DNA from: Parcubacteria group bacterium
Lineage (GTDB): Bacteria; Patescibacteriota; Minisyncoccia; Moranbacterales; UBA2206
Length of the DNA stretch: 64,000 bases
Assembly: GCA_041659505.1 (NCBI GenBank)
Contig: JBAZYF010000001.1
Span: 101,475-165,474 of the forward strand
Direction: 5' to 3'
The stretch's first letter is position 1, and each line of letters opens with the position of its first letter. The notes under the pieces were generated by a model that saw nothing but the letters and a program-made list of their open reading frames with translations, did not search any database and was not told the DNA's origin. Positions 362-63,672 of this stretch are shown piece after piece. The translations under genes and the position numbers were made by a program.

Positions 362-1336
362 TTATTCACTTTGGATACTTTTTTCTTGCTTGACTTTTCT
401 GCTTACCGGGATAGAAAAGCTAAAAATAGAACCAAGACCTTCTACTGAATCAAACCAAATTTCTCCCCCCAACTGACCAATTATGTTTTTAGAGATGTAC
501 AGACCCAACCCGGTCCCCTCTGTCTGATATTTGACAATGTTATCACTACGAAAAAATTTATCAAACACACGTCCGTGCTGCTCAAGCGGTATCCCGACGC
601 CATTATCTTTAATGCTGAAAATGACAAATTCTCCTTTCTTGAGAAGTTTTATCTCAATTTTTCCATGGTTAGTAGTATATTTAATTGCATTACCCAGAAG
701 ATTCTCCACTACCATTTGTAGTTTTTCCGGATCACCAAAAACCAATGGAACTTTTTTGGTATCACTAAAAATTACTTCGATAGATTTTTCCTTGGTTAAT
801 GGAGAGACGCCAGTAATCGCTCCTTTCGTAATTAATACAAGATTGGTAGGCATTCTTTTAATGATGAGCCTCCCTTGATCGATTCTTGCTACATCTAAAA
901 GATCATTGATTAATCTGGTCATCTTATTGCTGAGTGTATTGATATTTTCAATGCTTTCACGCTGCTTTCCGTCGATTTTTTCCTTGCGAAACTTGCACAA
1001 TAACAACTCTGTTTCCCAGCGGATAGCAGAAAGTGGGGTGCGTAACTGATGCGAAGCAACAGAAACAAATTCGCTTTTCATTTTATTTAGCTTTATCATT
1101 TGTTCCACCATAGTAATCACAACATTGCCCACAACCAAAACAACGATCACCACGAAACTTTCTGCCACAACTAAGAGCTCGGGACTATCATAATTCTTTG
1201 AAACATAGAAAGTCGCTGTCATTATTACTACAGCAACAACACCCATCATAATAAACAAAAACCCAGGGGTCTGCCAAAATTTTACCCCCAACTCACGCGC
1301 TTGTTTTTTTAAATTCAAATCATTGACGATCCACAT
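362..1336 (-). CDS. Sensor histidine kinase with an N-terminal TM region, a HisKA domain (H-box SHQLRTPL) and a HATPase_c domain (N box GNAIKYT, G1 DNGVGI, G2 GTGLGL).
   Basis: The 324 aa ORF carries canonical HK motifs. It lies immediately upstream of, and on the same strand as, the response regulator at 1-281, so it is probably a two-component operon. Confidence 0.85.
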   Translation of the reverse strand: MWIVNDLNLKKQARELGVKFWQTPGFLFIMMGVVAVVIMTATFYVSKNYDSPELLVVAESFVVIVVLVVGNVVITMVEQMIKLNKMKSEFVSVASHQLRTPLSAIRWETELLLCKFRKEKIDGKQRESIENINTLSNKMTRLINDLLDVARIDQGRLIIKRMPTNLVLITKGAITGVSPLTKEKSIEVIFSDTKKVPLVFGDPEKLQMVVENLLGNAIKYTTNHGKIEIKLLKKGEFVIFSIKDNGVGIPLEQHGRVFDKFFRSDNIVKYQTEGTGLGLYISKNIIGQLGGEIWFDSVEGLGSIFSFSIPVSRKVKQEKSIQSE

Positions 1337-16424: not shown

Positions 16425-16671
16425 TTTTAATACAACGCACCCTAAAAAAACTTCCTGGGAATATCCTTATTTTAGCATGAAACAGGTGAAAAATAAACCT
16501 AGACTATTCTACCCACAAAGAAAAAAATTAGTATAATTTCAAAATCCTAATTTCCAGCGTCAAATTAATTTCAAATGCCAAATTTCAAATTAAACAGCTT
16601 CTTTTGTAATTTGAGCTTTAGATTTGGTTGGAAATTTAACATTTTGATTTTGAAATTAGCCCTTAGCATTA

Positions 16672-19522: not shown

Positions 19523-19640
19523 TAATTTTCAATTTCTAATTTTCAATTTTCAAACAATTTTCAATGTTATAATTTTTGAATTTAGAAATTAATTCATTGG
19601 TCATTGTTTAGAAATTGGAAATTAGAAATTAGAAATTTCC

Positions 19641-22448
19641 CTAAAGGTATTTCCCCGTCCAACTTTTTTTGCATTTTTTCAGTTCCGCTGGTGAGCCTTC
19701 AAACACAATTTCTCCTCCGCCCGATCCGCCTTCCGGACCCAGATCGATCACCCAATCAGAATTGCGGATCACATCCACATTATGTTCAACGACTAAAACT
19801 GTATTACCTTTGTCGACCAGTGCGTCCAAAACACCCAGGAGTTTGCGGATATCTTCAAAGTGCAGTCCAATCGTTGGTTCATCTAAGATGTACAAAGTTT
19901 TTCCCGTTGCTCGACGTGCCAGCTCCGTGGCCAATTTGATCCGCTGCGCCTCACCACCAGAAAGATCAACGGCGCTTTGTCCTAATTTTAAATAACCCAA
20001 GCCGACTTTTTCCAGCGTGGATAATTTATCTGTCACTAGTTTGGAGTTTTTGAAAAACGCCAGAGCATAGCTCACGCTCATATCAAGTACTTGCGCAATA
20101 TTCACTCCGCGGTATTCAATCTCAAGAGTCCGCTGATTATACTTCGCGCCATTACACGTTTCACACGGCACATAGACATCCGGCAAGAGGTGCATCTCGA
20201 TTTTTTTCTTGCCCTCACCTTGGCAATCCTCACAACGTCCGCCCTTCATATTGAAACTGAAACGGCTAGCATCATACCCACGCGTCTGTGCCTCCTCTGT
20301 TTCGGCAAACAGCTCACGGATGAGCGAAAAAACTCCGGTGTAAGTTGCGGCGTTCGAGCGCGGGGTGCGACCGATCGGTGCTTGATTGATACTGATCACC
20401 TTGTCGATGTTTTCCATTCCGCTAATTTTTTTGTGCTGTCCAGGAGCTTCTTTGGTATTGAAAAAATGTTTAGCCAAAGCTTTGGACAAAATGTCTGAAA
20501 CTAAAGTTGATTTGCCCGAACCGGAAACGCCGGTAAGCGAAATAAATTTTCCCAAAGGTAAGCTCACATCAATATCTTTCAAATTATGCTCTGTCGCTCC
20601 CTGAATCTTGATAAATTTGCCCGAACCCTTGCGCGCTTTTTTCTTATCCCCGACCTGTCTTTTTCCGTTCAGGTACTGCGCGGTCACGGTTTTAGATTTG
20701 AGCAGCGTCGCGAGGTCACCAGAAAAAATCACCTCGCCACCTTCTTCGCCAGCCCCTGGCCCCATATCAATAATCCAATCTGCTGCCCGAATGATCTGTT
20801 CGTCGTGCTCCACGGTAATCAAAGAATTACCCGCTTCACGCAATTCTTCCATCGTCGCAATTAATTTTTCCGTATCACGATTATGCAATCCGATCGATGG
20901 TTCGTCTAAGACATAGGTGATGCCGGAGAGTTCTGAGCCAATCTGCGTCGCCAAGCGAATCCGCTGTCCTTCTCCGCCAGAAATCGAATTAGCCGAGCGC
21001 GAAAGTGAGAGATAACCCAATCCCACATTTTGGAGTGCGGCACTGCGCGCTTTCATTTCCTTGACCAATGGTAAAATAATATTTTTCTTCGCTGAGCTGA
21101 TGTTGATTTTTTCCAGCGCTTCCAAGAATTGCGAAAAATCAACCAGTGGCATATCCACAACCTGATCAATTGATTTGTCCGCCACGAGCACTGAAAGATA
21201 CTCCCCGCGCAGACGCTTGCCCAAACAAAGCGGGCAAACTTTCTCAATCATATATTTTTCAATCTCGCTTCTCAGATAGTTGGAATTCAGTTCTTCATAT
21301 TTCTTTTTCATCGTCGGGATGACGCCTTCGAAAATGATCTTCGGGTCATTGGATCCATAGAGCACGATATTCAAATGTTCCCGACTGATTTTTTTCACCG
21401 GAATATCGACAGAAAATCCATATTTCTCTCCCAGCATTTGCAAAATGTTATTCCCGCTCGTCAGCACGCTTGAGCGTCCGCCGGATTTGTTCCACGACAA
21501 AATCGCACCTTCAGCCAGTGTGAGATTTTTATTAGGAATGAGCAAATCTTCATCGATTTCCTTAATCACACCCAATCCTGAACAATGTTGGCAGGCGCCC
21601 TCGGGACTATTGAAAGAAAAATGTTTCGGTGTAATGTCCGCCACTTCAAAAAAACATTTCTTGCAGACAAAATCACGGTTATAAATTTTTTCTGTCTCAT
21701 TATCTTTAACAACCACGGCAGCACCTTTGCCCAATTTAAAAGCCGTTTCAATCGAATCTAAGATCCGTTCTCGATCAGGATTTTTCTTATTAAGCACGAT
21801 GCGATCAATTACAATTTCTGCGCTACACGTTTCGTCTGCTTCCAATTCGTTCTGCGACAGTGCCTCGGTCAGCGACACGATTTTTCCTCGAAATCGAATC
21901 CGCGCATAACCCAATTGACTGACACTTTTGAGCCGCTCTTTCAAGCTCTGATCTTTACCATTCAGCTTAGCGAGAATTGCAATATTAGTCTTTTCCGGCG
22001 AATCAAGAATGTCCTCCAATACTTCGGCATTAGAAATTTTTTCCAACGGCGTCTTGCAGTGCGGACAATGCGGCGCTCCGGCCTTAGCATAAAGCACACG
22101 CAGATAATCATAGATCTCTGTGAGCGTCCCCACCGTCGAACGCGGACTGCGCGCGATACTTTTTTGATCGATCGAGATAGTTGGCGTCAGATTTTCAATC
22201 TTGTCCACATCCGGTTTAGCCGACACATCCAGAAACTGTGTCGCATAACTCGACATGCCCTCGAGATAGCGCCGATTGCCTTCCGCATAAATCGCATCAA
22301 ACGCCAAAGAAGATTTTCCACTGCCAGAGAGTCCGGTAATGACCACCAGCTTATCCCGCGGAATTTCCACATCAATATTTTTCAAATTATTCACCCGCGC
22401 TCCGCGGACAATGATTTTGCTCCGATCTTTGGGTTTGTTTTTTGACAT
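19641..22448 (-). CDS. uvrA: Excinuclease ABC subunit A (UvrA), canonical length.
   Basis: 935 aa. Two ABC ATPase modules ([20 protein letters not shown]), zinc-finger Cys pairs, and the C-terminal LSGGE signature. Confidence 0.95.
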
Positions 22449-23641: not shown

Positions 23642-23657
23642 TGGGTTTTGTTCAATG

Positions 23658-23882
23658 CCCCTTCTCCTCTCGGGAGAAGGTGCCCGGAGGGCGGATGAGG
23701 GCAAGGGCGTTTGATTAAGAAAAAATTAGCTTTGTTTAGATTATTCTTAGCTTATCACCCTTGCCCTCACCTGTCATGAGTACATGACATCCTCTCCCGA
23801 GGGGAGAAGAGGAATTGAAGAGACTATTTTATAGCCTCACCTGTCACGTGCTCGTGACATCCTCTCCCTAAGGGAGAGGAGG
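23658..23882. repeat. REP/MITE-like composite element (family 1). Two inverted arms flank ~55 bp, plus an extra tandem half.
   Basis: The left arm ...GGGAGAAGGTGCCCGGAGGGCGGATGAGGGCAAGGGC and the right arm CCCTTGCCCTCACCTGTCATGAGTACATGACATCCTCTCCCGAGGGGAGAAG are reverse complements in their modules. The GTCACGTGCTCGTGAC and TCCTCTCCCTAAGGGAGAGGA hairpins repeat at 23826-23882. Confidence 0.75.
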
Positions 23883-23891
23883 AAATTTTTA

Positions 23892-25262
23892 TTATTCCAT
23901 AAAACTCTTCCCTCGTAATTTTTTATGATACGTAATTGCAAAACGATGGGCTTCGTCGCGGACGCGTTCGATGATTTCGTCGGATATTTCCGGCACACTA
24001 CCGAAAGAATAGCGGTCGAGTTTTTTACGGGTCGGACCTTTGGCGACAGCCAAAAGCGGGATCTCCAGATGAAAATTTTTGAGCACACGCCGCACCGCTG
24101 TGAGATGACCTTGCCCGCCGTCTAAAATTATAAGATCTGGCATCGGCCAATTATTGCCAAATCTGCGCCCCAAAACTTCCGCCATCGAAGCCGTATCATT
24201 TGCGCCTTCGATGGTTTTTATTTTAAATTTGCGATACTGACTCTTGTTTGGGCCTATTTCCCCATTCGCATTATCAAACACCACCATAGACCCGACGCTC
24301 GATTTTCCGGAAATATTAGAAATGTCATAACCCTCAATGCGAAATGATTTTGCGTCGCCCTTGTAGAGACGAGGCACTGCCTCGTCTTGGCATTGTTGGT
24401 TTGCGCATTGACGTTCATTGCTCTCAAGACGTGGCAATGCCACGTCTCTACCTTCTGATATCAACGCAATATCCCGAATATGCTGCAACGCAAAAATCGC
24501 ATTGCGCATTTTCCCCGCTTTTTCAAATTCCTGTTTCTCGCTTAATTCTGACATTTCTTTTTTCATTTTCGCAAGCAATGTTTTTTTCTTGCCTTCCAAA
24601 ATCATCCGTATGCCACGGATATTTTTCATATAATCCTCTTTAGAAATCGCCCCAGCATATGGCCCCGGACAAAGCCCGATCTGAAAATCCAAGCAACCAC
24701 TTTCCGTTTTTTGCGCCTTGGAATGATAGGGAAAAATTTTCCTAAGTATTTTCAGCGCAATTTCAATATTTTTTTTGGAAATATATGGACCATAGATTTT
24801 ACTAAATTTGGATTTTATATCGACATCTTGATCCATTTCTCTTTTTCGCAAAAACAATATCCGCGGAAAATCTTCTTTTGTAATGGCAACATAAGAAAAT
24901 GACTTATCATCTTTTCCATCCACATTAAACTTCGGCTGCCACTTTTTGATCAGTCCCTGCTCTAAAATATATGCCTCCAAAACCGTCTCGGTTTTTCGAA
25001 CTTCAATATCCGCCACTTGAGAAATAAACATTTCAATCGGTCGCGATCCCATTCGTAAATTCGTAGGGGTTTGATTCATCAAACCCTCGGCTATTCCGGG
25101 TTCAATAAATTGAACCCCTACAAAATACGAACCAACCCGGTCTTTAAGTGATGTCGCTTTGCCCACATACAAAATTTTCCCAGAATCATTTCTAAAAATA
25201 TAGACACCGGGAGAGGTGGGCAGACTTTTCAGTTTTTTGGCGATTTTGGTTGACATTTGCAT
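23892..25262 (-). CDS. uvrC: Excinuclease ABC subunit C (UvrC). This is a short form lacking the C-terminal HhH region and carrying an in-frame palindromic-element insertion.
   Basis: GIY-YIG domain (GVYIFRNDSGKILYVGKATSLKDRVGSYF), UVR-like segment (EKQEFEKAGKMRNAIFALQ), and the RNase H-like endonuclease domain (YDISNISG...PDLIILDGGQGHL...RDEAHRFAITYH). 456 aa. Confidence 0.9.
   Translation of the reverse strand: MQMSTKIAKKLKSLPTSPGVYIFRNDSGKILYVGKATSLKDRVGSYFVGVQFIEPGIAEGLMNQTPTNLRMGSRPIEMFISQVADIEVRKTETVLEAYILEQGLIKKWQPKFNVDGKDDKSFSYVAITKEDFPRILFLRKREMDQDVDIKSKFSKIYGPYISKKNIEIALKILRKIFPYHSKAQKTESGCLDFQIGLCPGPYAGAISKEDYMKNIRGIRMILEGKKKTLLAKMKKEMSELSEKQEFEKAGKMRNAIFALQHIRDIALISEGRDVALPRLESNERQCANQQCQDEAVPRLYKGDAKSFRIEGYDISNISGKSSVGSMVVFDNANGEIGPNKSQYRKFKIKTIEGANDTASMAEVLGRRFGNNWPMPDLIILDGGQGHLTAVRRVLKNFHLEIPLLAVAKGPTRKKLDRYSFGSVPEISDEIIERVRDEAHRFAITYHKKLRGKSFME
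24363..24450. repeat. Palindromic element (family 4) inserted in frame inside uvrC. It has two perfect hairpins, GACGAGGCACTGCCTCGTC and GACGTGGCAATGCCACGTC, flanked by TAGAGA...TCTCTA.
   Basis: Read directly from the sequence. It encodes ...RDVALPRLESNERQCANQQCQDEAVPRLYK... in the UvrC linker. A second copy lies intergenic at 41158-41226. Confidence 0.75.
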
Positions 25263-25989: not shown

Positions 25990-26082
25990 TCTGAAATTTT
26001 CCCACCTCTCCCATAATCGCTCAACAGCACCAACCCGGACAATCGTCACAACCGACTTTTGCCCGGTTTTTTATTTCCAAAA

Positions 26083-26143
26083 AATCAGTGAAATCACTTT
26101 AATCAGTGAAAATCAGTGGTTCTGATGTTTAGTGGTTCAGGCA
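26083..26143. repeat. CACTGATT-rich repeat (family 6) immediately 3' of uvrA2. It contains AATCAGTGGTTCTGAT.
   Basis: AAAATCAGTGAAATCACTTTAATCAGTGAAAATCAGTGGTTCTGATGTTTAGTGGTTCAGG. A related element with terminal inverted repeats is at 39925-40026. Confidence 0.6.
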
Positions 26144-29100
26144 TTCTTTCAGATATTTCCCCGTCCAACTCTCTTTATCCCACTTCGCCACTTCTTCCGG
26201 TGTGCCGGAAACAATCACTTTGCCGCCTTCTTTCCCGCCTTCCGGACCCAGATCAATGATCCAATCGGCGGTTTTTATCACATCTAAATTGTGCTCGATT
26301 ACAATCACGGTGTTGCCCGCATCCACCAGACGATTAAGAATGCCCAACAATTTTTTGATATCATCGAAATGCAAGCCAGTCGTCGGTTCGTCGAGAATGT
26401 AAAGCGTGTCGCCTGTTGCACGACGAGAAAGTTCCGTGGAAAGTTTGATCCGTTGGGCTTCTCCGCCGGAGAGCGTCGTGGCTGATTGGCCGAGTTGAAT
26501 GTAGCCCAAGCCGACATCTTCCAAAACTTTGAGCTTGTCGGCGATATCATGAAAATTAGCAAAAAATTCGCGCGCTTCGGAGATAGTCAAGGCCAGCACA
26601 TCCGCAATATTTTTGTCACGGTATTTCACTTTCAGCGTTTCACTATTGTAGCGTTTTCCACCGCAAACATCGCAAGGCAGATAAACATCCGGCATAAATT
26701 GCATTTCGATCTTATTATATCCATCCCCCTGGCAATTATCACAGCGTCCGCCTTTGACATTGAAAGAAAAGCGTCCCGGCGAATAGCCTTTCGCTTTGGC
26801 GTCGCGCGTTTCGGCAAACAGTTCGCGAATGGCCGTGAATAGTCCCGTGTAGGTCGCGGGATTGGACCGTGGCGTGCGACCGATCGGCGATTGATCAATC
26901 ATAATTACTTTGTTGAGATAATGATCGCCGACAATTTCACTGTGCTTGCCTGGCCGTTCCAGAGAACGCATAATTTTGGCTGAAAGCGCTTTGTAGAGAA
27001 TATCTTCCACCAGCGTTGATTTTCCCGAACCGGACACTCCGGTCACGCAGGTCAAAACTTTGAGCGGAAACGACACAGTAATATTTTGCAAATTATGTTC
27101 GCGCGCTCCCCGCACCACGAGCGTTTTTTTGCTTTTGAGCGATCGACGATATGCCGGGGCTTCAATCGAAAGATCTCCCCGTAAATATTTGGCCGTCAGT
27201 GATTCTTCACTTTTCATCACTTCTAGAGGCGTTCCTTCGGCGACAATTTCTCCGCCGTGTTTTCCCGCGCCTGGCCCGATGTCCACGAGGTAGTCCGCGG
27301 CGCGCATCGTTTCTTCATCGTGCTCCACCACAATCAAGGTATTACCCACATCGCGCAGTTGCAAAAGCGTCGCAAGCAGTTTGGCGTTGTCCCGCGCATG
27401 CAGACCAATTGATGGCTCATCAAGGATATACAGCACGCCAACGAGCTGGGAGCCGATCTGTGAGGCTAGGCGGATGCGTTGTGATTCTCCACCGGCTAAA
27501 GTGTTAGCGGCGCGACCGAGCGAAAGATAGCCAAGGCCGACGTCTTGCAAAAATCCCAAGCGATTTTGAATTTCTTTCAAGATCCGGCTAGCGATCAACT
27601 CTTCACGTTTGGTGAAATTTATTTTTTGAAAAAAATCCAACGTTTCCCGCACACTGATGGTGGAAACTTCATGGATGTTTTTCCCGCCTGCAACGCTATG
27701 CTCTTCAGAACTAGTACTTTCCTTTATTTTTTTACTATAACCGTCAGAATTCTCCGTTCCACTTAACAGCGTAGCATTGCGGGCAGGATCGCCCACAGTC
27801 ACAAGTAAAGCTTCTTTTTTATAGCGCGAACCGAGACAAGTCGAACAGGGATTTTGGGACATATATTTCTCAATGTCTGTGCGCACGCCTTCCGAATCAG
27901 TCTTGAGATAGCGATCCTGCAAATAGCCCACCACTCCCCGCCAGTGCATATTATATTTCCAACTTGATCCGGTCTTGCTTCTCAAGGTCACAGGAATTTC
28001 ATCCCCGCCCGCATCGCTACGCGAAGCGTTGCGGGCGGGAGCGCCTTCCTCTAACGTTATATCCGTTATATCTGAAGTGCCATAGAGCAGGGTATTAAAA
28101 TCATCATCGGAAAGGTCGCGCAAACGCACATTATCCCGAATGTCATAAAAATTCGTCACTGCGCGCAAAATTGTTCCCTGCCAATTGTTTTTCTTATAAC
28201 TCCACGGCATAATTCCGCCTTCCGCGATCGTTTTGTTCATATCCGGCACAACCAGATCAGGATCAATCTCTTTTTTCACGCCCAACCCTTCACAGGATGG
28301 ACAAGCACCAAACGGACTATTGAAAGAAAACAGGCGCGGTTCCAATTCCGGAAAATCCACCTCATGCACCGGACAAGAAAAATTCTGATTGAAAATCATT
28401 TCGCCATCAAAACTAGGACCAGAGCTAAGCTCTCGGCTCCGAGAGCTTAGCTCTGGTTTCTCTAGTTTTTCGGATTTAAGTCCTCTTATGGTTTTTTTTG
28501 CTGTTTTATTTTTCCCATCTCCTGTCATCAATTTTATTTTCACAATTCCCTTAGACAATTTCAAGGCTTGTTCCACACCTTCAAAGATCCGCGAAATATT
28601 CTCGGAATTTATTTCTACCTTATCAACTAAGATATCAATATTGTGTTTTTTATAACGTTCTAATTTCACCCGTGTGCCGATCTTTTCATCCAGCGCATAT
28701 TTTTTTCCGTTGACAAAGGCGGTGGAGAAACCGCGCCGAAACATCTCCTCGAGAAGTGTCGAGTATTCCCCTTTGCGTTCCCGCACGATAGGAGAAAAAA
28801 TTTCAATCGCACAATCATCTTTTTTTGATTTTTTATCCTTACCTGTCGTGCAAATATTCAAAATCCGATCCACAATTTCATCTGTGGACAGTTTCACGAT
28901 TTCTCGGTTGCAAATCGGACAATGCGCCACACCGATTTTGGCATAAAGCAGACGCAGATAGTCGTGAATTTCCGTCACCGTTCCCACGGTTGAACGTGGA
29001 TTGTGTGAAGCGGCTTTTTGGTCAATCGAAATCGCGGGACTAAGCCCCTCGATTGAATCGACTTCCGGCTTTCCCATCTGACCCAAAAACTGGCGGGCAT

Positions 29101-29281
29101 AGCTCGACAGACTTTCCAGATATCGCCGTTGTCCCTCGGCAAAAATGGTATCAAAAGCCAGCGTACTCTTGCCTGAGCCGGAAATTCCGGTGAAAACAAT
29201 AAATTTATTCCGCGGTAGATCGAGATTGATATTCTTGAGATTGTGCTCTCTCGCTCCGCGAATGATTAATTCGTCTTGCAT
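26129..29281 (-). CDS. uvrA: UvrA paralog (UvrA2), 1050 aa. It is a complete two-module UvrA with several G+C-rich insertions.
   Basis: [65 protein letters not shown]... plus a second module [11 protein letters not shown] and the LSGGEAQR signature. It is ~110 aa longer than the copy at 19641-22448 because of three insert segments. Confidence 0.9.
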   Translation of the reverse strand: MQDELIIRGAREHNLKNINLDLPRNKFIVFTGISGSGKSTLAFDTIFAEGQRRYLESLSSYARQFLGQMGKPEVDSIEGLSPAISIDQKAASHNPRSTVGTVTEIHDYLRLLYAKIGVAHCPICNREIVKLSTDEIVDRILNICTTGKDKKSKKDDCAIEIFSPIVRERKGEYSTLLEEMFRRGFSTAFVNGKKYALDEKIGTRVKLERYKKHNIDILVDKVEINSENISRIFEGVEQALKLSKGIVKIKLMTGDGKNKTAKKTIRGLKSEKLEKPELSSRSRELSSGPSFDGEMIFNQNFSCPVHEVDFPELEPRLFSFNSPFGACPSCEGLGVKKEIDPDLVVPDMNKTIAEGGIMPWSYKKNNWQGTILRAVTNFYDIRDNVRLRDLSDDDFNTLLYGTSDITDITLEEGAPARNASRSDAGGDEIPVTLRSKTGSSWKYNMHWRGVVGYLQDRYLKTDSEGVRTDIEKYMSQNPCSTCLGSRYKKEALLVTVGDPARNATLLSGTENSDGYSKKIKESTSSEEHSVAGGKNIHEVSTISVRETLDFFQKINFTKREELIASRILKEIQNRLGFLQDVGLGYLSLGRAANTLAGGESQRIRLASQIGSQLVGVLYILDEPSIGLHARDNAKLLATLLQLRDVGNTLIVVEHDEETMRAADYLVDIGPGAGKHGGEIVAEGTPLEVMKSEESLTAKYLRGDLSIEAPAYRRSLKSKKTLVVRGAREHNLQNITVSFPLKVLTCVTGVSGSGKSTLVEDILYKALSAKIMRSLERPGKHSEIVGDHYLNKVIMIDQSPIGRTPRSNPATYTGLFTAIRELFAETRDAKAKGYSPGRFSFNVKGGRCDNCQGDGYNKIEMQFMPDVYLPCDVCGGKRYNSETLKVKYRDKNIADVLALTISEAREFFANFHDIADKLKVLEDVGLGYIQLGQSATTLSGGEAQRIKLSTELSRRATGDTLYILDEPTTGLHFDDIKKLLGILNRLVDAGNTVIVIEHNLDVIKTADWIIDLGPEGGKEGGKVIVSGTPEEVAKWDKESWTGKYLKECLNH
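28419..28456. repeat. Perfect 38 bp palindrome CCAGAGCTAAGCTCTCGG|CTCCGAGAGCTTAGCTCTGG, inserted in frame in uvrA2.
   Basis: Read directly. It encodes KPELSSRSRELSSGP within a uvrA2-specific insert. Related GC-rich palindromes (CCCGCCCGC...GCGGGCGGG at ~28004-28046 and ~27770-27800) lie in two further inserts, both of which encode PARNA motifs. Confidence 0.7.
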
Positions 29282-29335
29282 AATATATAAAAAGTGTGAT
29301 GTGTTTAAATTTAGTATACTCTAGTTTACAGCTCT

Positions 29336-29354
29336 TTGAGTTTTCCTGCAAGCG
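29336..29354. repeat. 19 bp direct repeat TTTGAGTTTTCCTGCAAGC (copy 1). It is followed by two hairpins at 29374-29425.
   Basis: An identical 19-mer recurs at 30285-30303. The pair brackets the single gene 29411-30157. Confidence 0.7.
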
Positions 29355-29410
29355 AACTGTCCCTAAAATATTACGAGCCGGTACAAATGAGTTTGCACCG
29401 GCTCGCTTCC

Positions 29411-31303: not shown

Positions 31304-31963
31304 CTAAAGGCTCACATATTTCACCGGCAAAACTTTTCGGAAAATGCCGGCAAAAATGAAGGAGTCGGATTTGTGGATAAAGATCGGCTGGTGGATCGGG
31401 TTGGTCGATTTGGGAAAAAGGCCGATCACGTCTTCACTGACTTTTTTGTAGCGTTTGATGGTGGCCATGCCGTTCACCACTGCCACGACAATCTTACCTT
31501 CCAATTCTTCCTGGTGTTCATATTTCTCAAAAATGACGTAGTCGCCATCGTTGATTTTTTCCTTGTCCATCGAATCGCCCAAGGCCTTCACGGCAAAAAG
31601 CAAAGACTCATCTTTGTCACGAAAAAGCGCTTTGGAAATTTGCAAAAAGCCGTCGACATTGTCCTGCGCATAAGCCAGCGCTTCTCCGCAAGATGCCAAG
31701 CCATAGACCGGCACAGAGAAAATATTTTTAAAATTAGTATAATTCTTGTTTTCCACCAGATAGATTTTCTTGTTCTTATCACGCTTGATTAGATCCTTTT
31801 TTTCGAGTGATTCAATCACTTGCATTACCGATTTCAAACTATCCTTCACACCTTGCGACTCCAAAAATTTTTGCAACCGATAGCTGGTGGGATTAGCTTT
31901 CCCCTGGTCGATCAGCTCTCGGATCGATTCCAGGATGTTTTGTTGTTTGGCTGTTAGGATCAT
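31304..31963 (-). CDS. lexA: LexA-like repressor (N-terminal wHTH plus S24 peptidase domain with Ser/Lys dyad).
   Basis: 219 aa. The N-terminus MILTAKQQNILESIRELIDQG is wHTH-like. It has the self-cleavage region VYGLASCGEA, the catalytic GDSM, and the Lys in ATIKRYKK. This matches the LexA/CI/UmuD S24 family. Confidence 0.75.
   Translation of the reverse strand: MILTAKQQNILESIRELIDQGKANPTSYRLQKFLESQGVKDSLKSVMQVIESLEKKDLIKRDKNKKIYLVENKNYTNFKNIFSVPVYGLASCGEALAYAQDNVDGFLQISKALFRDKDESLLFAVKALGDSMDKEKINDGDYVIFEKYEHQEELEGKIVVAVVNGMATIKRYKKVSEDVIGLFPKSTNPIHQPIFIHKSDSFIFAGIFRKVLPVKYVSL

Positions 31964-36812: not shown

Positions 36813-36815
<3 letters not shown>
36769..36815. terminator. Convergent terminator hairpin ATATGCCCG-N19-CGGGCATAT plus a T run, between the hypothetical gene and the uvrB stop.
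   Basis: Read directly. TATTTTTTT follows the stem. Confidence 0.55.
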
Positions 36816-38876
<2,061 letters not shown>

Positions 38877-41157: not shown

Positions 41158-41226
41158 ACGGAAATCTGGTAGAGACGAGGCACTGCCTCGTCTTAATGCT
41201 GGTGGTTTTTAAGACGAGGCAGTGCC
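41158..41226. repeat. Palindromic element (family 4), intergenic copy: GGTAGAGACGAGGCACTGCCTCGTCTT-N15-AAGACGAGGCAGTGCCTCGTCTCTAC.
   Basis: It has the same hairpin module as the uvrC in-frame insert (24363-24450). Confidence 0.75.
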
Positions 41227-41351
41227 TCGTCTCTACGGGGGATATTCGGCTATTACAAGCCAAGAAATGACTTAAAATAGCCATTTTGGACTTGACGAAA
41301 GAATGGCGCCGTGCTAACCTCAAATGAGTCATAGACTGGAAATTTTAATCT

Positions 41352-45880: not shown

Positions 45881-46051
45881 GTGTCATTCCCGCGAAGGCG
45901 GGAATCCAGGTTCCACTAGCTTTAAACTCTGGAAAATCGAGATGCAAGTCTAACATGCTTTTAGTTTCAGTAAGTCTTGAATTTTAATAATTCGTTTTTT
46001 CCTAGTGTTGAACTTGAGGTGCCTGGATCCCCGCCTTCGCGAGGATGACAC
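45881..46051. repeat. MITE-like element, family 2, copy 1. Its ~30 bp terminal inverted repeats are GTGTCATTCCCGCGAAGGCGGGAATCCAGGTTCCACTAG ... CCTGGATCCCCGCCTTCGCGAGGATGACAC.
   Basis: The terminal inverted repeats were read directly. There are three copies in the window (also 59118-59320 and 63497-63665). Confidence 0.8.
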
Positions 46052-46126: not shown

Positions 46127-47293
46127 TTAAAGGATAAACCCCACTTTTTTCTTCACCTCATCCAACTTCTTCTTCGCCAATGGTCGGACTTTTTTGGCGC
46201 CGTCTTCGAGGATCTTTAGCACTTTTTCGTCAGACAATTCCGCCATCCGTCTTTGGAACGGTTCGAGGAATTTGATAATTACTTCTGCGAGTTCTGTTTT
46301 GAAGTCAGAATACTTTTTACCCACAAAAAGCTCCGCCACTTCTTGGGGTTTTTTATTGTCCAAAAGAGCATAAATATTGATCAAATTTTTGAGCGCCGGT
46401 TTATCGTCAGAATAAATAATTTCACTGCCGCTGTCCGTCACCGCTTTTTTGATTTTTCTCTTCACTGTATCCGCGTCATCGCTAAGTGCGATGTAGTTAT
46501 ATTCCGATTTGGCCGATTTAGACATTTTCTTGGTTGGATCATCAAGACCCATGATATTTTCACTTTCTTTGTTTGTGTACGCCTCTGGCACCACAAATGT
46601 CTCGCCAAATTTATGATTAAATCTTTGTGCTAAAGTCCGCGCTAGTTCGATGTGTTGCTTTTGGTCTTTGCCGACAGGCACCGCCTGGGTATCATAGAGC
46701 AAAATATCAGCCGCCATTAAAACTGGGTAATCAAAAAGACCAACCGAAGATTTATTAAATGTTTCTCTGATAAATTTTTTATATACATCAACGGTTGAAA
46801 GTATGGCTGTTTTATGCAAAAAATTTGCAAGTTCAAGAATCTTATCTGCTTTAACCGCTCTATCGATTACGAACCCATTGTTTTCTAAATTCGTTATTAT
46901 ATCTTCCTTTGATTTTTCCATCATTGCTTCAACAAAAACATCTTCGTCAAAACCAGTCTTATCTTTGAATTGAGTCATTTTATTCAGATCACCATTCTGG
47001 GTAATCGTATTTAAAATCCAACTCAGCTCCGCATGCTCCGAAACGTGCGATTGGATAAAAATTGAACATTTCCCTGGGTCTATCCCCGCTGCCAAATAAA
47101 TCTTGGCGATTTCAATTGTGCGACGACGTAGCGTTTCCGGATCTTGCGGAACCGTGATGGCGTGCATATCCACGACACAAAAAATCGAATCATACTCCTC
47201 TTGTAACTTGACCCAATTCTGGATTGCGCCGAGATAGTTTCCAATGTGAAGATTCCCCGATGGCTGAATGCCAGAAAATATGCGTTTTTTCAT
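46127..47293 (-). CDS. trpS: Tryptophan--tRNA ligase (TrpRS) with an ~60-70 aa insertion.
   Basis: HIGH-region GIQPSGNLHIGNYLG, KMSKS motif, and the TrpRS-specific GKDQKQHIELAR. Confidence 0.85.
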   Translation of the reverse strand: MKKRIFSGIQPSGNLHIGNYLGAIQNWVKLQEEYDSIFCVVDMHAITVPQDPETLRRRTIEIAKIYLAAGIDPGKCSIFIQSHVSEHAELSWILNTITQNGDLNKMTQFKDKTGFDEDVFVEAMMEKSKEDIITNLENNGFVIDRAVKADKILELANFLHKTAILSTVDVYKKFIRETFNKSSVGLFDYPVLMAADILLYDTQAVPVGKDQKQHIELARTLAQRFNHKFGETFVVPEAYTNKESENIMGLDDPTKKMSKSAKSEYNYIALSDDADTVKRKIKKAVTDSGSEIIYSDDKPALKNLINIYALLDNKKPQEVAELFVGKKYSDFKTELAEVIIKFLEPFQRRMAELSDEKVLKILEDGAKKVRPLAKKKLDEVKKKVGFIL

Positions 47294-51523: not shown

Positions 51524-51669
51524 CACCTCATCCGGCCTTCGGCCACCTTCTCCTTAGTAAGGAGAAGGGCTCAACGCATAACCTCCTCGATTCCTAAGCT
51601 CAGAGAAATTGATACAACATATCTGCATTTGTCCCCTCTCCTTACTAAGGAGAGGGTTAGGGTGAGGTG
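51524..51669. repeat. REP/MITE-like element (family 1). Two inverted arms flank ~55 bp.
   Basis: CACCTCATCCGGCCTTCGGCCACCTTCTCCTTAGTAAGGAGAAGGGC ... CCCCTCTCCTTACTAAGGAGAGGGTTAGGGTGAGGTG. Confidence 0.7.
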
Positions 51670-53910: not shown

Positions 53911-54068
53911 CCTCCTCTCCCTTAGGGAGAGGATGTCACATACTCGTGACAGGTGAGGGAAAAGGGCTAAAAAATTATAGGTAAACTAACTAAAATTAGT
54001 CTTTCTATAACATCAAGTCCCCTCCCTCATCCGCCCTTCGGGCACCTTCTCCCTAAGGGAGAAGGGGT
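53911..54068. repeat. REP/MITE-like element (family 1). Two inverted arms flank ~55 bp.
   Basis: CCTCCTCTCCCTTAGGGAGAGGATGTCACATACTCGTGACAGGTGAGGGAAAAGGGC ... CCCCTCCCTCATCCGCCCTTCGGGCACCTTCTCCCTAAGGGAGAAGGGG. Confidence 0.7.
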
Positions 54069-63483: not shown

Positions 63484-63496
63484 TTTTGTTTCTGCC

Positions 63497-63665
63497 GTGT
63501 CATTCCCGCGAAGGCGGGAATCCAGGTTCCACTAGTTATGTATTATAAAAAAATGAATTATAAATTCTCAGATTTCATATTACAGCTTGTTTATTTTTTA
63601 TTTGTTCGTTTTCTCTAAAAGTTAAGCCTGAGGTATCTGGATCCCCGCCTTCGCGGGGATGACAC
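63497..63665. repeat. MITE-like element, family 2, copy 3. Same terminal inverted repeats, different AT-rich interior.
   Basis: GTGTCATTCCCGCGAAGGCGGGAATCCAGGTTCCACTAG ... CTGGATCCCCGCCTTCGCGGGGATGACAC. Confidence 0.8.
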
Positions 63666-63672
63666 GAATTAA

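Follow-up and report, generated by a model that had tools for sequence, protein, structure and literature searches.

Hairpin-forming repeat DNA as the probable source of the extra length of a class I UvrA in a Moranbacterales genome

Introduction

Palindromic repeats that lie within protein-coding genes are best known from Rickettsia, where Ogata et al. reportedly described the Rickettsia palindromic elements (RPEs) in 2000 and 2002. The classical RPE-1 is roughly 100-150 bp long. Here we describe a comparable case in a 64,000-nucleotide stretch of DNA (the window; contig JBAZYF010000001.1, positions 101,475 to 165,474; G+C about 41%) from a Parcubacteria group bacterium of the Moranbacterales; its best protein matches assign it to Candidatus Moranbacteria (Parcubacteria group, Patescibacteria). 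One of its two uvrA genes, uvrA-L, is enlarged and carries three GC-rich palindromic elements of 36, 40 and 105 bp. We consider it probable (about 0.8) that the excess length of UvrA-L arose from the insertion of short hairpin-forming repeat DNA into a canonical class I uvrA coding sequence.

Two bodies of earlier work bear on this locus. Di Nocera, De Gregorio and Rocco (2013) reported repetitive extragenic palindromes (REPs) of 20-40 bp, tagged with GTAG or CGTC, inside genes, notably those for nucleotide excision repair (NER; PMC3733652). Such REP inserts occur in both uvrA genes of Opitutus terrae and in uvrA or uvrB of Thioalkalivibrio and R. conorii (PMC3733652). Class II UvrAs, which are paralogs of the repair protein, are defined by the absence of the UvrB-binding domain and of the first zinc motif (PMC9328131, PMC3167621).

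Results

Whole-codon inserts at four hotspots of UvrA-L

UvrA-L was compared with its orthologues from Moranbacteria, 18 of them by codon alignment and 77 at the protein level. Orthologue lengths range from 944 to 1073 aa, and nearly all of this variation falls at four hotspots (Table 1). Even orthologues with 85-92% identity differ in their inserts, and many have none. Among the 77 proteins, stereotyped palindrome-encoded peptides (e.g. PASTRGDDRSSTRGG) occur at four different positions in different orthologues; such recurrence of one peptide at differing positions is a mark of dispersed repeats and not of local duplications. Hotspot 1 of five orthologues (L004, L005, L010, L014 and L015) contains GTAGAGAC...GTCTCTAC elements, and hotspot 3 of L016 and P0002 contains PASTRGD..SSTRGG elements.

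The 36-bp element of the window, at hotspot 3, comprises exactly 12 codons and encodes PARNASRSDAGG in frame. It lies between the codons GCT and GAT, and 16 of the 18 orthologues have a clean empty site, with GCx followed directly by GAT. As single-stranded DNA it folds with an energy of -18.5 kcal/mol (z = -4.7). The 105-bp element, at hotspot 4, encodes PARNATLLSGTENSDGYSKKIKESTSSEEHSVAGG in frame (peptide PARNATLLSG...EHSVAGG). Its terminal inverted repeats (TIRs), CCTGCCCGCAATGCTACG and CATAGCGTTGCAGGCGGG, together form the most frequent variant of the 36-bp palindrome among the matches listed in the family search described below, with 69 bp placed exactly at the dyad. This interior had no other copy in the sequences searched, except in the orthologue of the closest relative (L009, 90% identical). 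Only the window and L009 carry the 105-bp element among the 18 orthologues, of which 15 have a clean empty site directly before a conserved AAA codon (an Arg codon in L016). Neither the 36-bp nor the 105-bp site shows a target-site duplication.

As judged by these alignments, the 36-bp and 105-bp elements are shown to be precise whole-codon additions relative to close orthologues. A sequence-only reading of this locus had proposed in-frame palindrome insertion and had pointed to two inverted repeats encoding PARNA peptides, related to a longer palindrome nearby. Both repeats are borne out as these two elements and, given the empty sites, so is their insertion; for the longer (40-bp) palindrome, insertion stays unproven.

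Comparison of the window with L009 showed how the 105-bp insert has evolved. In the core of the gene, 46 codons differ nonsynonymously and 341 by synonymous changes only; in the insert the corresponding numbers are 7 and 4. From this difference in ratio, the insert is close to neutral at the protein level. The codon counts thus show strong purifying selection on the core and an insert that drifts in its protein sequence. Substitutions separate window and L009 in both the insert and its flanks.

The inserts are predicted to sit in unstructured loops. An AlphaFold model of UvrA-L has a mean predicted local distance difference test score (pLDDT) of 74, and its segments with pLDDT <50, which include residues 146-154, 253-291, 408-425 and 498-530, coincide with the four hotspots and have almost no predicted secondary structure. 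A scan of positions 26000-29400 against Rfam (E <= 1) gave a chance-level match only. At least one contig from an independent assembly (ENA k141_404315, 158.7 kb) encodes the identical 1050-aa protein, all three inserts included, which makes an assembly artefact unlikely.

The 36-bp element belongs to a dispersed family

A degenerate pattern of the 36-bp element, searched against metagenome contigs, matched at least 120 of them (loci L037-L156), with G+C contents from 0.30 to 0.65 among the matches listed, to which the following counts also refer. Inside open reading frames (ORFs) of at least 100 codons lie 75 of 122 copies; intergenic copies also occur. The 49 host ORFs of at least 200 codons encode ordinary housekeeping proteins, including ArgG, DnaK, MreB, BipA, NrdD, AlaRS, CysRS, LeuRS/IleRS-type synthetases, ClpB, MutL, a UvrD-like helicase-nuclease and aminotransferases. 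Only 2 of the 49 are repair helicase or nuclease genes, so specificity of the family for NER genes was ruled out. The three frames are used in the ratio 34:11:4 in these hosts, favouring PARNA[ST]xSxAGG, and the 12-codon unit is stop-free in 4-5 of its 6 frames. Flanking bases are not conserved, and some copies carry insertions of 9-19 bp at the centre. The commonest 36-mer variant had no match in plasmid and phage collections.

The family is apparently not confined to Patescibacteria, as one host contig (L068, 62% G+C) looks like that of a bacterium from the Planctomycetota-Verrucomicrobiota-Chlamydiota (PVC) group: it encodes a CysRS with closest named relatives from Kiritimatiellia, Lentisphaerota and Verrucomicrobiota. 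Closer to the window, uvrB of L004 contains a 36/36 identical copy in the opposite orientation. This uvrB site is also filled in L157, by a 33/36 copy, and in the window it contains a decayed 22/36 copy (37839-37874, AANNASQNNAGG). The intact copies of L157 and L004 differ from each other by inversion of the central 16 nt.

Variation within the family was analysed in 21 distinct 36-mer variants. The full-length palindrome had a covariation score of 0.036, compared with 0.069 in shuffles, showing that a simple palindrome is not maintained. An offset 8-bp hairpin, pairing columns 7-14 with 18-25, scored 0.260 against 0.131 +/- 0.022, and 0 of 500 shuffles scored as high. For pair 11-21, AU and UA are found in 10 variants each; for pair 7-25, 14 variants have UA and 4 have CG. 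These exchanges are suggestive of variation that preserves the offset hairpin rather than the simple palindrome. The hairpin contains a constant A.A mismatch and has a mirror image on the other strand, and GC dinucleotides recur every 5 nt in the family.

The 40-bp palindrome at hotspot 2

The perfect 38-bp palindrome reported by the sequence-only reading (28419-28456) was recovered with one additional base on each arm (Table 1). It is composed of a 13-nt near-palindrome, AGAGCTAAGCTCT, an 8-nt linker and AGAGCTTAGCTCT, and encodes PELSSRSRELSSG in frame. No palindrome of this size is expected by chance; its single-stranded DNA fold has an energy of -21.2 kcal/mol (z = -8.5). It lies in a variable linker that is missing from the shortest orthologues and from solved UvrAs. 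Four orthologues (L157, L158, L015 and L016) have symmetric variants at the same site, with homologous flanks and differences that are concerted between the arms; the symmetric forms include GGAGCTAAGCTCC-GTTGCAAC-GGAGCTTAGCTCC and GGGACTAAGTCCC-GAAGCTTC-GGGACTTAGTCCC, beside AGAGCT... in the window. Related genomes, which had been named as the place to look for these palindromes, contain copies of the 36-bp family, while the 40-bp palindrome was found, in the small sample searched, only at orthologous uvrA sites. That it is a repeat insertion is plausible; a dispersed family was found for the 36-bp and 105-bp elements only. The 40-bp palindrome could be an older element of another family or a palindrome generated locally, and its symmetry would be kept by concerted change of the arms, such as template switching within the hairpin could bring about.

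The hotspot-2 linker of three further orthologues (L001, L003 and L009) is occupied by AT-rich sequence read in frame as FQNPNFQFQTKSK. AT-rich CAAATTTCAAAT-type repeats are present in intergenic DNA of the window (19524-19637 and 16566-16658) and resemble this linker sequence by eye only.

The enlarged copy is the more canonical UvrA

According to the sequence-only reading, the window contains two complete uvrA genes about 4 kb apart, of which the second is about 110 aa longer through inserts and might be a diverged, class II-like UvrA2. The arrangement was verified: both ORFs are full-length, the gap of 3.68 kb holds the ygjP-like gene, uvrC and the DUF5680 gene, and the proteins differ in length by 115 aa. 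The assignment was not. UvrA-L scores 1405.3 bits against the NCBIfam UvrA equivalog NF001503 and UvrA-S 1267 bits (cut-off 1147); UvrA-L also scores 1340.8 bits against TIGR00630. Both copies have PF17760, the UvrB-binding domain, and PF17755, which is the insertion (DNA-binding) domain. In UvrA-L they match aa 155-251 and aa 340-408, the latter ending just short of the 36-bp insert (aa 415-426). The solved UvrB-binding domain 3fpn is matched by both copies, and 4dfc also by UvrA-L. UvrA-L aligns to solved UvrA structures, and UvrA-S aligns in a single stretch to residues 21-952 of Geobacillus UvrA (2r6f), UvrB-binding domain included.

Functional residues, whose conservation had been in question, are kept in both copies. 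This holds for each ATPase site, with its Walker A/B, signature and H-loop motifs, and for the cysteines that belong to the three zinc modules. Across the orthologues of UvrA-L, the zinc-module residues (C120/C123/C302/H305, C326/C329/C478/C481 and C846/C849/C869/C872) vary hardly or not at all, and the same is true of the Walker and signature motifs; in zinc module 1 of UvrA-L, CxxH replaces the second CxxC. Because the UvrB-binding domain and the first zinc motif are present in both copies, neither is a class II UvrA. Class II membership was rejected on the UvrB-binding domain for both.

A neighbour-joining tree was built from 898 nearly gap-free columns; with neither bootstrap support nor a class II outgroup, its deep branching is tentative. 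UvrA-L and the rest of its clade fall together with UvrAs from other bacteria, other Patescibacteria among them, with which they share 52-55% identity. UvrA-S forms its own, faster-evolving clade (66.7% identity to L014, where UvrA-L has 80.4%; the UvrA-L core is 95.7% identical to that of L003). The two copies share about 50% identity. Since UvrA-L scores higher and evolves more slowly, and UvrA-S is the faster, separate clade, the earlier picture is inverted: on these comparisons UvrA-L is a conservative class I UvrA and the short UvrA-S a divergent paralog.

The gene order is uvrB, S24/LexA-like, uvrA-L, DUF5680, uvrC, ygjP-like, uvrA-S, groEL, and it is shared by the NER cluster of L157. 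The uvrA-S orthologue follows 1.4-3.8 kb downstream of the uvrA-L orthologue in L157 and in nine genome loci. Judged by this synteny, the pair is old in Moranbacteria. Whether the two are recent tandem duplicates had been raised, and this was ruled out by the roughly 50% identity, by separate orthologue clades and by synteny conserved in at least 10 loci. UvrA-L presumably still acts in NER with the neighbouring uvrB and uvrC; its genomic context, with uvrB, uvrC and the gene for a LexA-like S24 peptidase in the same cluster, fits its predicted role in damage recognition and UvrB loading.

The length of UvrA-S is nearly constant among close relatives (927-937 aa). A few distant orthologues (P0129, P0135, P0142, P0185 and P0205) have apparent palindrome-type peptide inserts, SPSPELRHSEGEAL and VGTGQCPVPTGVGA, seen at the protein level only and situated near aa 188-205 in a single loop of the UvrB-binding domain. 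A rule that UvrA-S never carries inserts was therefore discarded. Some relatives encode UvrA-like proteins of about 1780 aa (P0108 and P0111), a double-length, fused UvrA-UvrA that recalls the fused form for which NCBIfam has the model NF001885.

Other palindromes and features of the window

The window contains 15 GC-rich inverted repeats, compared with 0-6 (mean 2.3) in block shuffles. Of the six intragenic ones, four fall within uvrA-L, uvrB and uvrC; these three genes account for 12.8% of the coding DNA. In uvrB, a perfect 28-bp palindrome (37577-37604, GTAGAGACGCATTGCAATGCGTCTCTAC) encodes VETHCNASL and is shared with L157. The uvrC sites (24363-24451 and 25060-25124) comprise a dimer of GTAGAGAC-type hairpins, missing from the L157 orthologue, and a GTAG-tagged REP-like dimer, GTAGGGGTTTGATTCATCAAACCC / GGGTTCAATAAATTGAACCCCTAC, within the GIY-YIG region. 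Intergenic DNA contains several repeat families: GTAGAGACGAGGCACTGCCTCGTCT dimers, units of the form CCTTCTCC..GGAGAAGG, and GTCATTCCCGCGAAGGCGGGAATCC pairs separated by about 50 or about 100 bp. The peptides VETxxxASL and PSPxKGEG, typical of the GTAGAGACGAGGCACTGCCTCGTCT and CCTTCTCC..GGAGAAGG families, occur in frame in other Moranbacteria UvrA orthologues. Outside the NER cluster, a class I W/Y tRNA synthetase gene (46127-47293) gives a Pfam tRNA-synt_1b match that is split in two, with the best stretch from residue 154, which hints at an insert.

Table 1. Coordinates of the elements, hotspots and genes discussed (positions are those of the window; residues are those of UvrA-L).
Feature	Position	Strand	Description
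36-bp palindromic repeat element	28004-28039 (aa 415-426)		18+18 nt, 89% complementary; in insertion domain
105-bp element	27683-27787 (aa 499-533)		35 codons; 18-nt TIRs 27683-27700 and 27770-27787 around 69 bp
40-bp palindrome	28418-28457		19+2+19; arms 28418-28436 and 28439-28457, 100% complementary, 2 nt apart
Variable linker, hotspot 2	28403-28525 (aa 253-293)	minus	between UvrB-binding domain and zinc module 1
Hotspots 1-4	residues ~146-158, 253-293, 414-426, 498-533		from alignment of orthologues
uvrA-L	26129-29281	minus	class I UvrA, 1050 aa; conserved canonical copy, insert carrier
uvrA-S	19641-22448	minus	second class I-type UvrA, 935 aa, insert-free; divergent, faster-evolving paralog
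uvrB	36813-38876	minus	NER cluster member
S24/LexA-like peptidase gene	31304-31963	minus	NER cluster member
DUF5680 gene	between uvrA-L and uvrC	plus	
uvrC	23892-25262	minus	between the two uvrA genes
ygjP-like gene	between uvrC and uvrA-S		
Intergenic palindromic repeats	41166-41239, 51545-51657, 53911-54067, 23651-23882, 45881-46051, 63496-63666		

Discussion

The data above point to repeat DNA as the source of the extra length of UvrA-L. The elements would be selfish or neutral passengers, and the copies now visible would be the survivors of selection: those that kept the frame, brought no stop codons and fell in permissive surface loops. Such a filter on frame, stops and loops would be why the same four UvrA sites have been struck repeatedly across lineages. 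The 36-bp unit appears suited to life inside genes, with its 12 codons, 4-5 of 6 frames open, a mostly hydrophilic frame, a Pro start and a Gly-Gly end. The most likely route of spread would be a hairpin intermediate of single-stranded DNA, acted on by an enzyme whose gene lies elsewhere and which could be of the HUH or REP-associated tyrosine transposase (RAYT) type or another; an offset bulged hairpin on each strand would point to recognition of single-stranded DNA by a dedicated enzyme.

Several observations weigh against insertion of mobile repeats as the explanation. No transposase or RAYT gene was found among the 41 Pfam-scanned ORFs of the window, so mobility is deduced from distribution only. 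Outside uvrA-L, the window showed no further intact member of the 36-bp family, the sole other trace being the decayed copy in uvrB. Across the window, viral contigs and fetched loci of about 1.1 Mb in total, the 40-bp palindrome and its 13-nt unit occurred only at orthologous uvrA sites. The 105-bp element has been kept since the split of window and L009 (about 15% nucleotide divergence) and is open in only 1 of 6 frames; given this persistence and the single open frame, some retention by selection is possible. Translation of the inserts as part of UvrA-L is predicted from the reading frame.

Could the inserts serve the protein instead? If UvrA-L were a neofunctionalised UvrA2, its inserts would be adaptive modules that change the choice of partner or substrate, as for class II proteins in drug resistance. 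The genome does keep two UvrA paralogs, the domains in which the inserts fall (UvrB-binding and insertion) make contact with UvrB and DNA, and the 105-bp insert has persisted since the split from L009. However, it is the long copy that is more canonical and slower-evolving, and it has the UvrB-binding domain, which class II proteins lack (PMC9328131), together with the zinc and ATPase motifs. The inserts come and go among orthologues that are 85-92% identical, their sequence tracks DNA symmetry and not a protein pattern, they are predicted to be disordered, the 105-bp insert is relaxed at the protein level, and the same 12-codon unit occurs in dozens of unrelated proteins. We therefore regard neofunctionalisation as very improbable. 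A function at the level of nucleic acid (ribosome pausing, mRNA decay, attenuation within the NER cluster, a cruciform or a protein-binding site) would agree with the great stability of the hairpins, the concerted changes of the hotspot-2 palindrome between orthologues and the offset hairpin that covariation keeps in the 36-bp family. It would also agree with the concentration of intragenic palindromes of the window in uvrA-L, uvrB and uvrC, as Di Nocera et al. saw in other phyla (PMC3733652). It is nonetheless improbable in our view, as presence varies among close orthologues and position among four hotspots, the same element lies in unrelated genes and in intergenic DNA, and Rfam gave no match; conservation of structure is equally expected if a mobilising enzyme recognises the hairpin.

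For the 40-bp palindrome alone, a separate origin deserves tentative consideration, though we hold it to be on the unlikely side: it may have arisen in place, in a low-complexity linker, by hairpin-templated strand switching, and been kept symmetric in the same way. Searches of the window, of related and unrelated loci totalling about 1.1 Mb and of viral contigs gave no other copy, and orthologues have different, equally symmetric versions at the same site with homologous flanks. Yet the genome sample searched for this element was small, other hotspots of uvrA-L demonstrably receive dispersed repeats, and replacement by related family members could also produce such versions. Recent tandem duplication of the two genes, or inserts that are assembly chimeras, would have nothing beyond the proximity of the genes to recommend it, and we give it practically no credence: the copies are only about 50% identical, in separate orthologue clades with conserved synteny, and the 105-bp insert is common to L009, with substitutions in insert and flanks. 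An assembly artefact was rejected on the strength of the same 1050-aa protein on an independent contig.

Insertion of hairpin-forming repeats thus remains our explanation, and the type is rare but already described: selfish DNA inside protein-coding genes, with precedents in uvrA. One could go further and see in the 36-bp unit, CCYGCCYGCAWYGCTWYG then CRWAGCRWTGCRGGCRGG, a mobile hairpin, so far undescribed, that passes between phyla and has specialised in protein-coding genes, with NER genes perhaps preferred or preferentially tolerated as targets; this we consider doubtful. What the locus does offer is an extension to the candidate phyla radiation of protein-coding palindromes, known classically as a curiosity of Rickettsia, with one 12-codon element common to very different uncultured bacteria. 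Such inserts inflate domain matches and break them up, as where the PF17755 match halts before the 36-bp insert, and can mislead annotation toward supposed diverged paralogs. The recurrent hotspots in UvrA, UvrB and UvrC amount to a natural insertion scan that marks permissive loops of NER proteins. The 36-bp family is a tractable case for the spread of hairpin DNA without a visible transposase, and bears on repair genes as special targets, an earlier observation in other phyla that was never explained.

How do these elements compare with known systems? The second UvrA-family gene in the genome is the feature shared with class II paralogs such as D. radiodurans UvrA2, DrrC and Ecm16; those have neither the UvrB-binding domain nor the first zinc motif (PMC9328131, PMC3167621), whereas both window copies have the two. 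Intragenic REPs are matched by GTAG-ended palindromes in uvrB and uvrC of the window. The uvrA-L elements differ in having no terminal GTAG or CGTC tag: they start with CCYGCC or ACCAGAG, and GTAG is internal in the 36-mer. Among the Pfam-scanned ORFs of the 64-kb window there is also no RAYT gene, and the arm sequences of the 36-mer are absent from the supplementary text of PMC3733652. Bacterial MITEs (miniature transposable elements with inverted repeats) resemble the 105-bp element in its 18-nt TIRs, its non-coding origin and its size range, but the element has no target-site duplication and its ends are halves of the 36-bp palindrome. We know of no cognate transposase for it. As terminal tag and target-site duplication are lacking, we file the uvrA-L elements as RPE- or REP-like and not as proven members. 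In the literature on the 36-bp family or on in-frame palindromes in Patescibacteria or Moranbacteria we found nothing specific, within incomplete coverage.

The likeness to RPEs is one of description. The hosts here are Patescibacteria and a PVC-group contig instead of Rickettsia, the main unit is 36 bp (12 codons) instead of the roughly 100-150 bp of the classical RPE-1, and the family spans, among the matches listed, G+C contents of 0.30-0.65 and apparently more than one phylum. In both systems, short palindromic repeats lie in frame in conserved functional genes, are dispersed over many unrelated genes in small, reduced genomes, and add peptide segments that the host protein tolerates.

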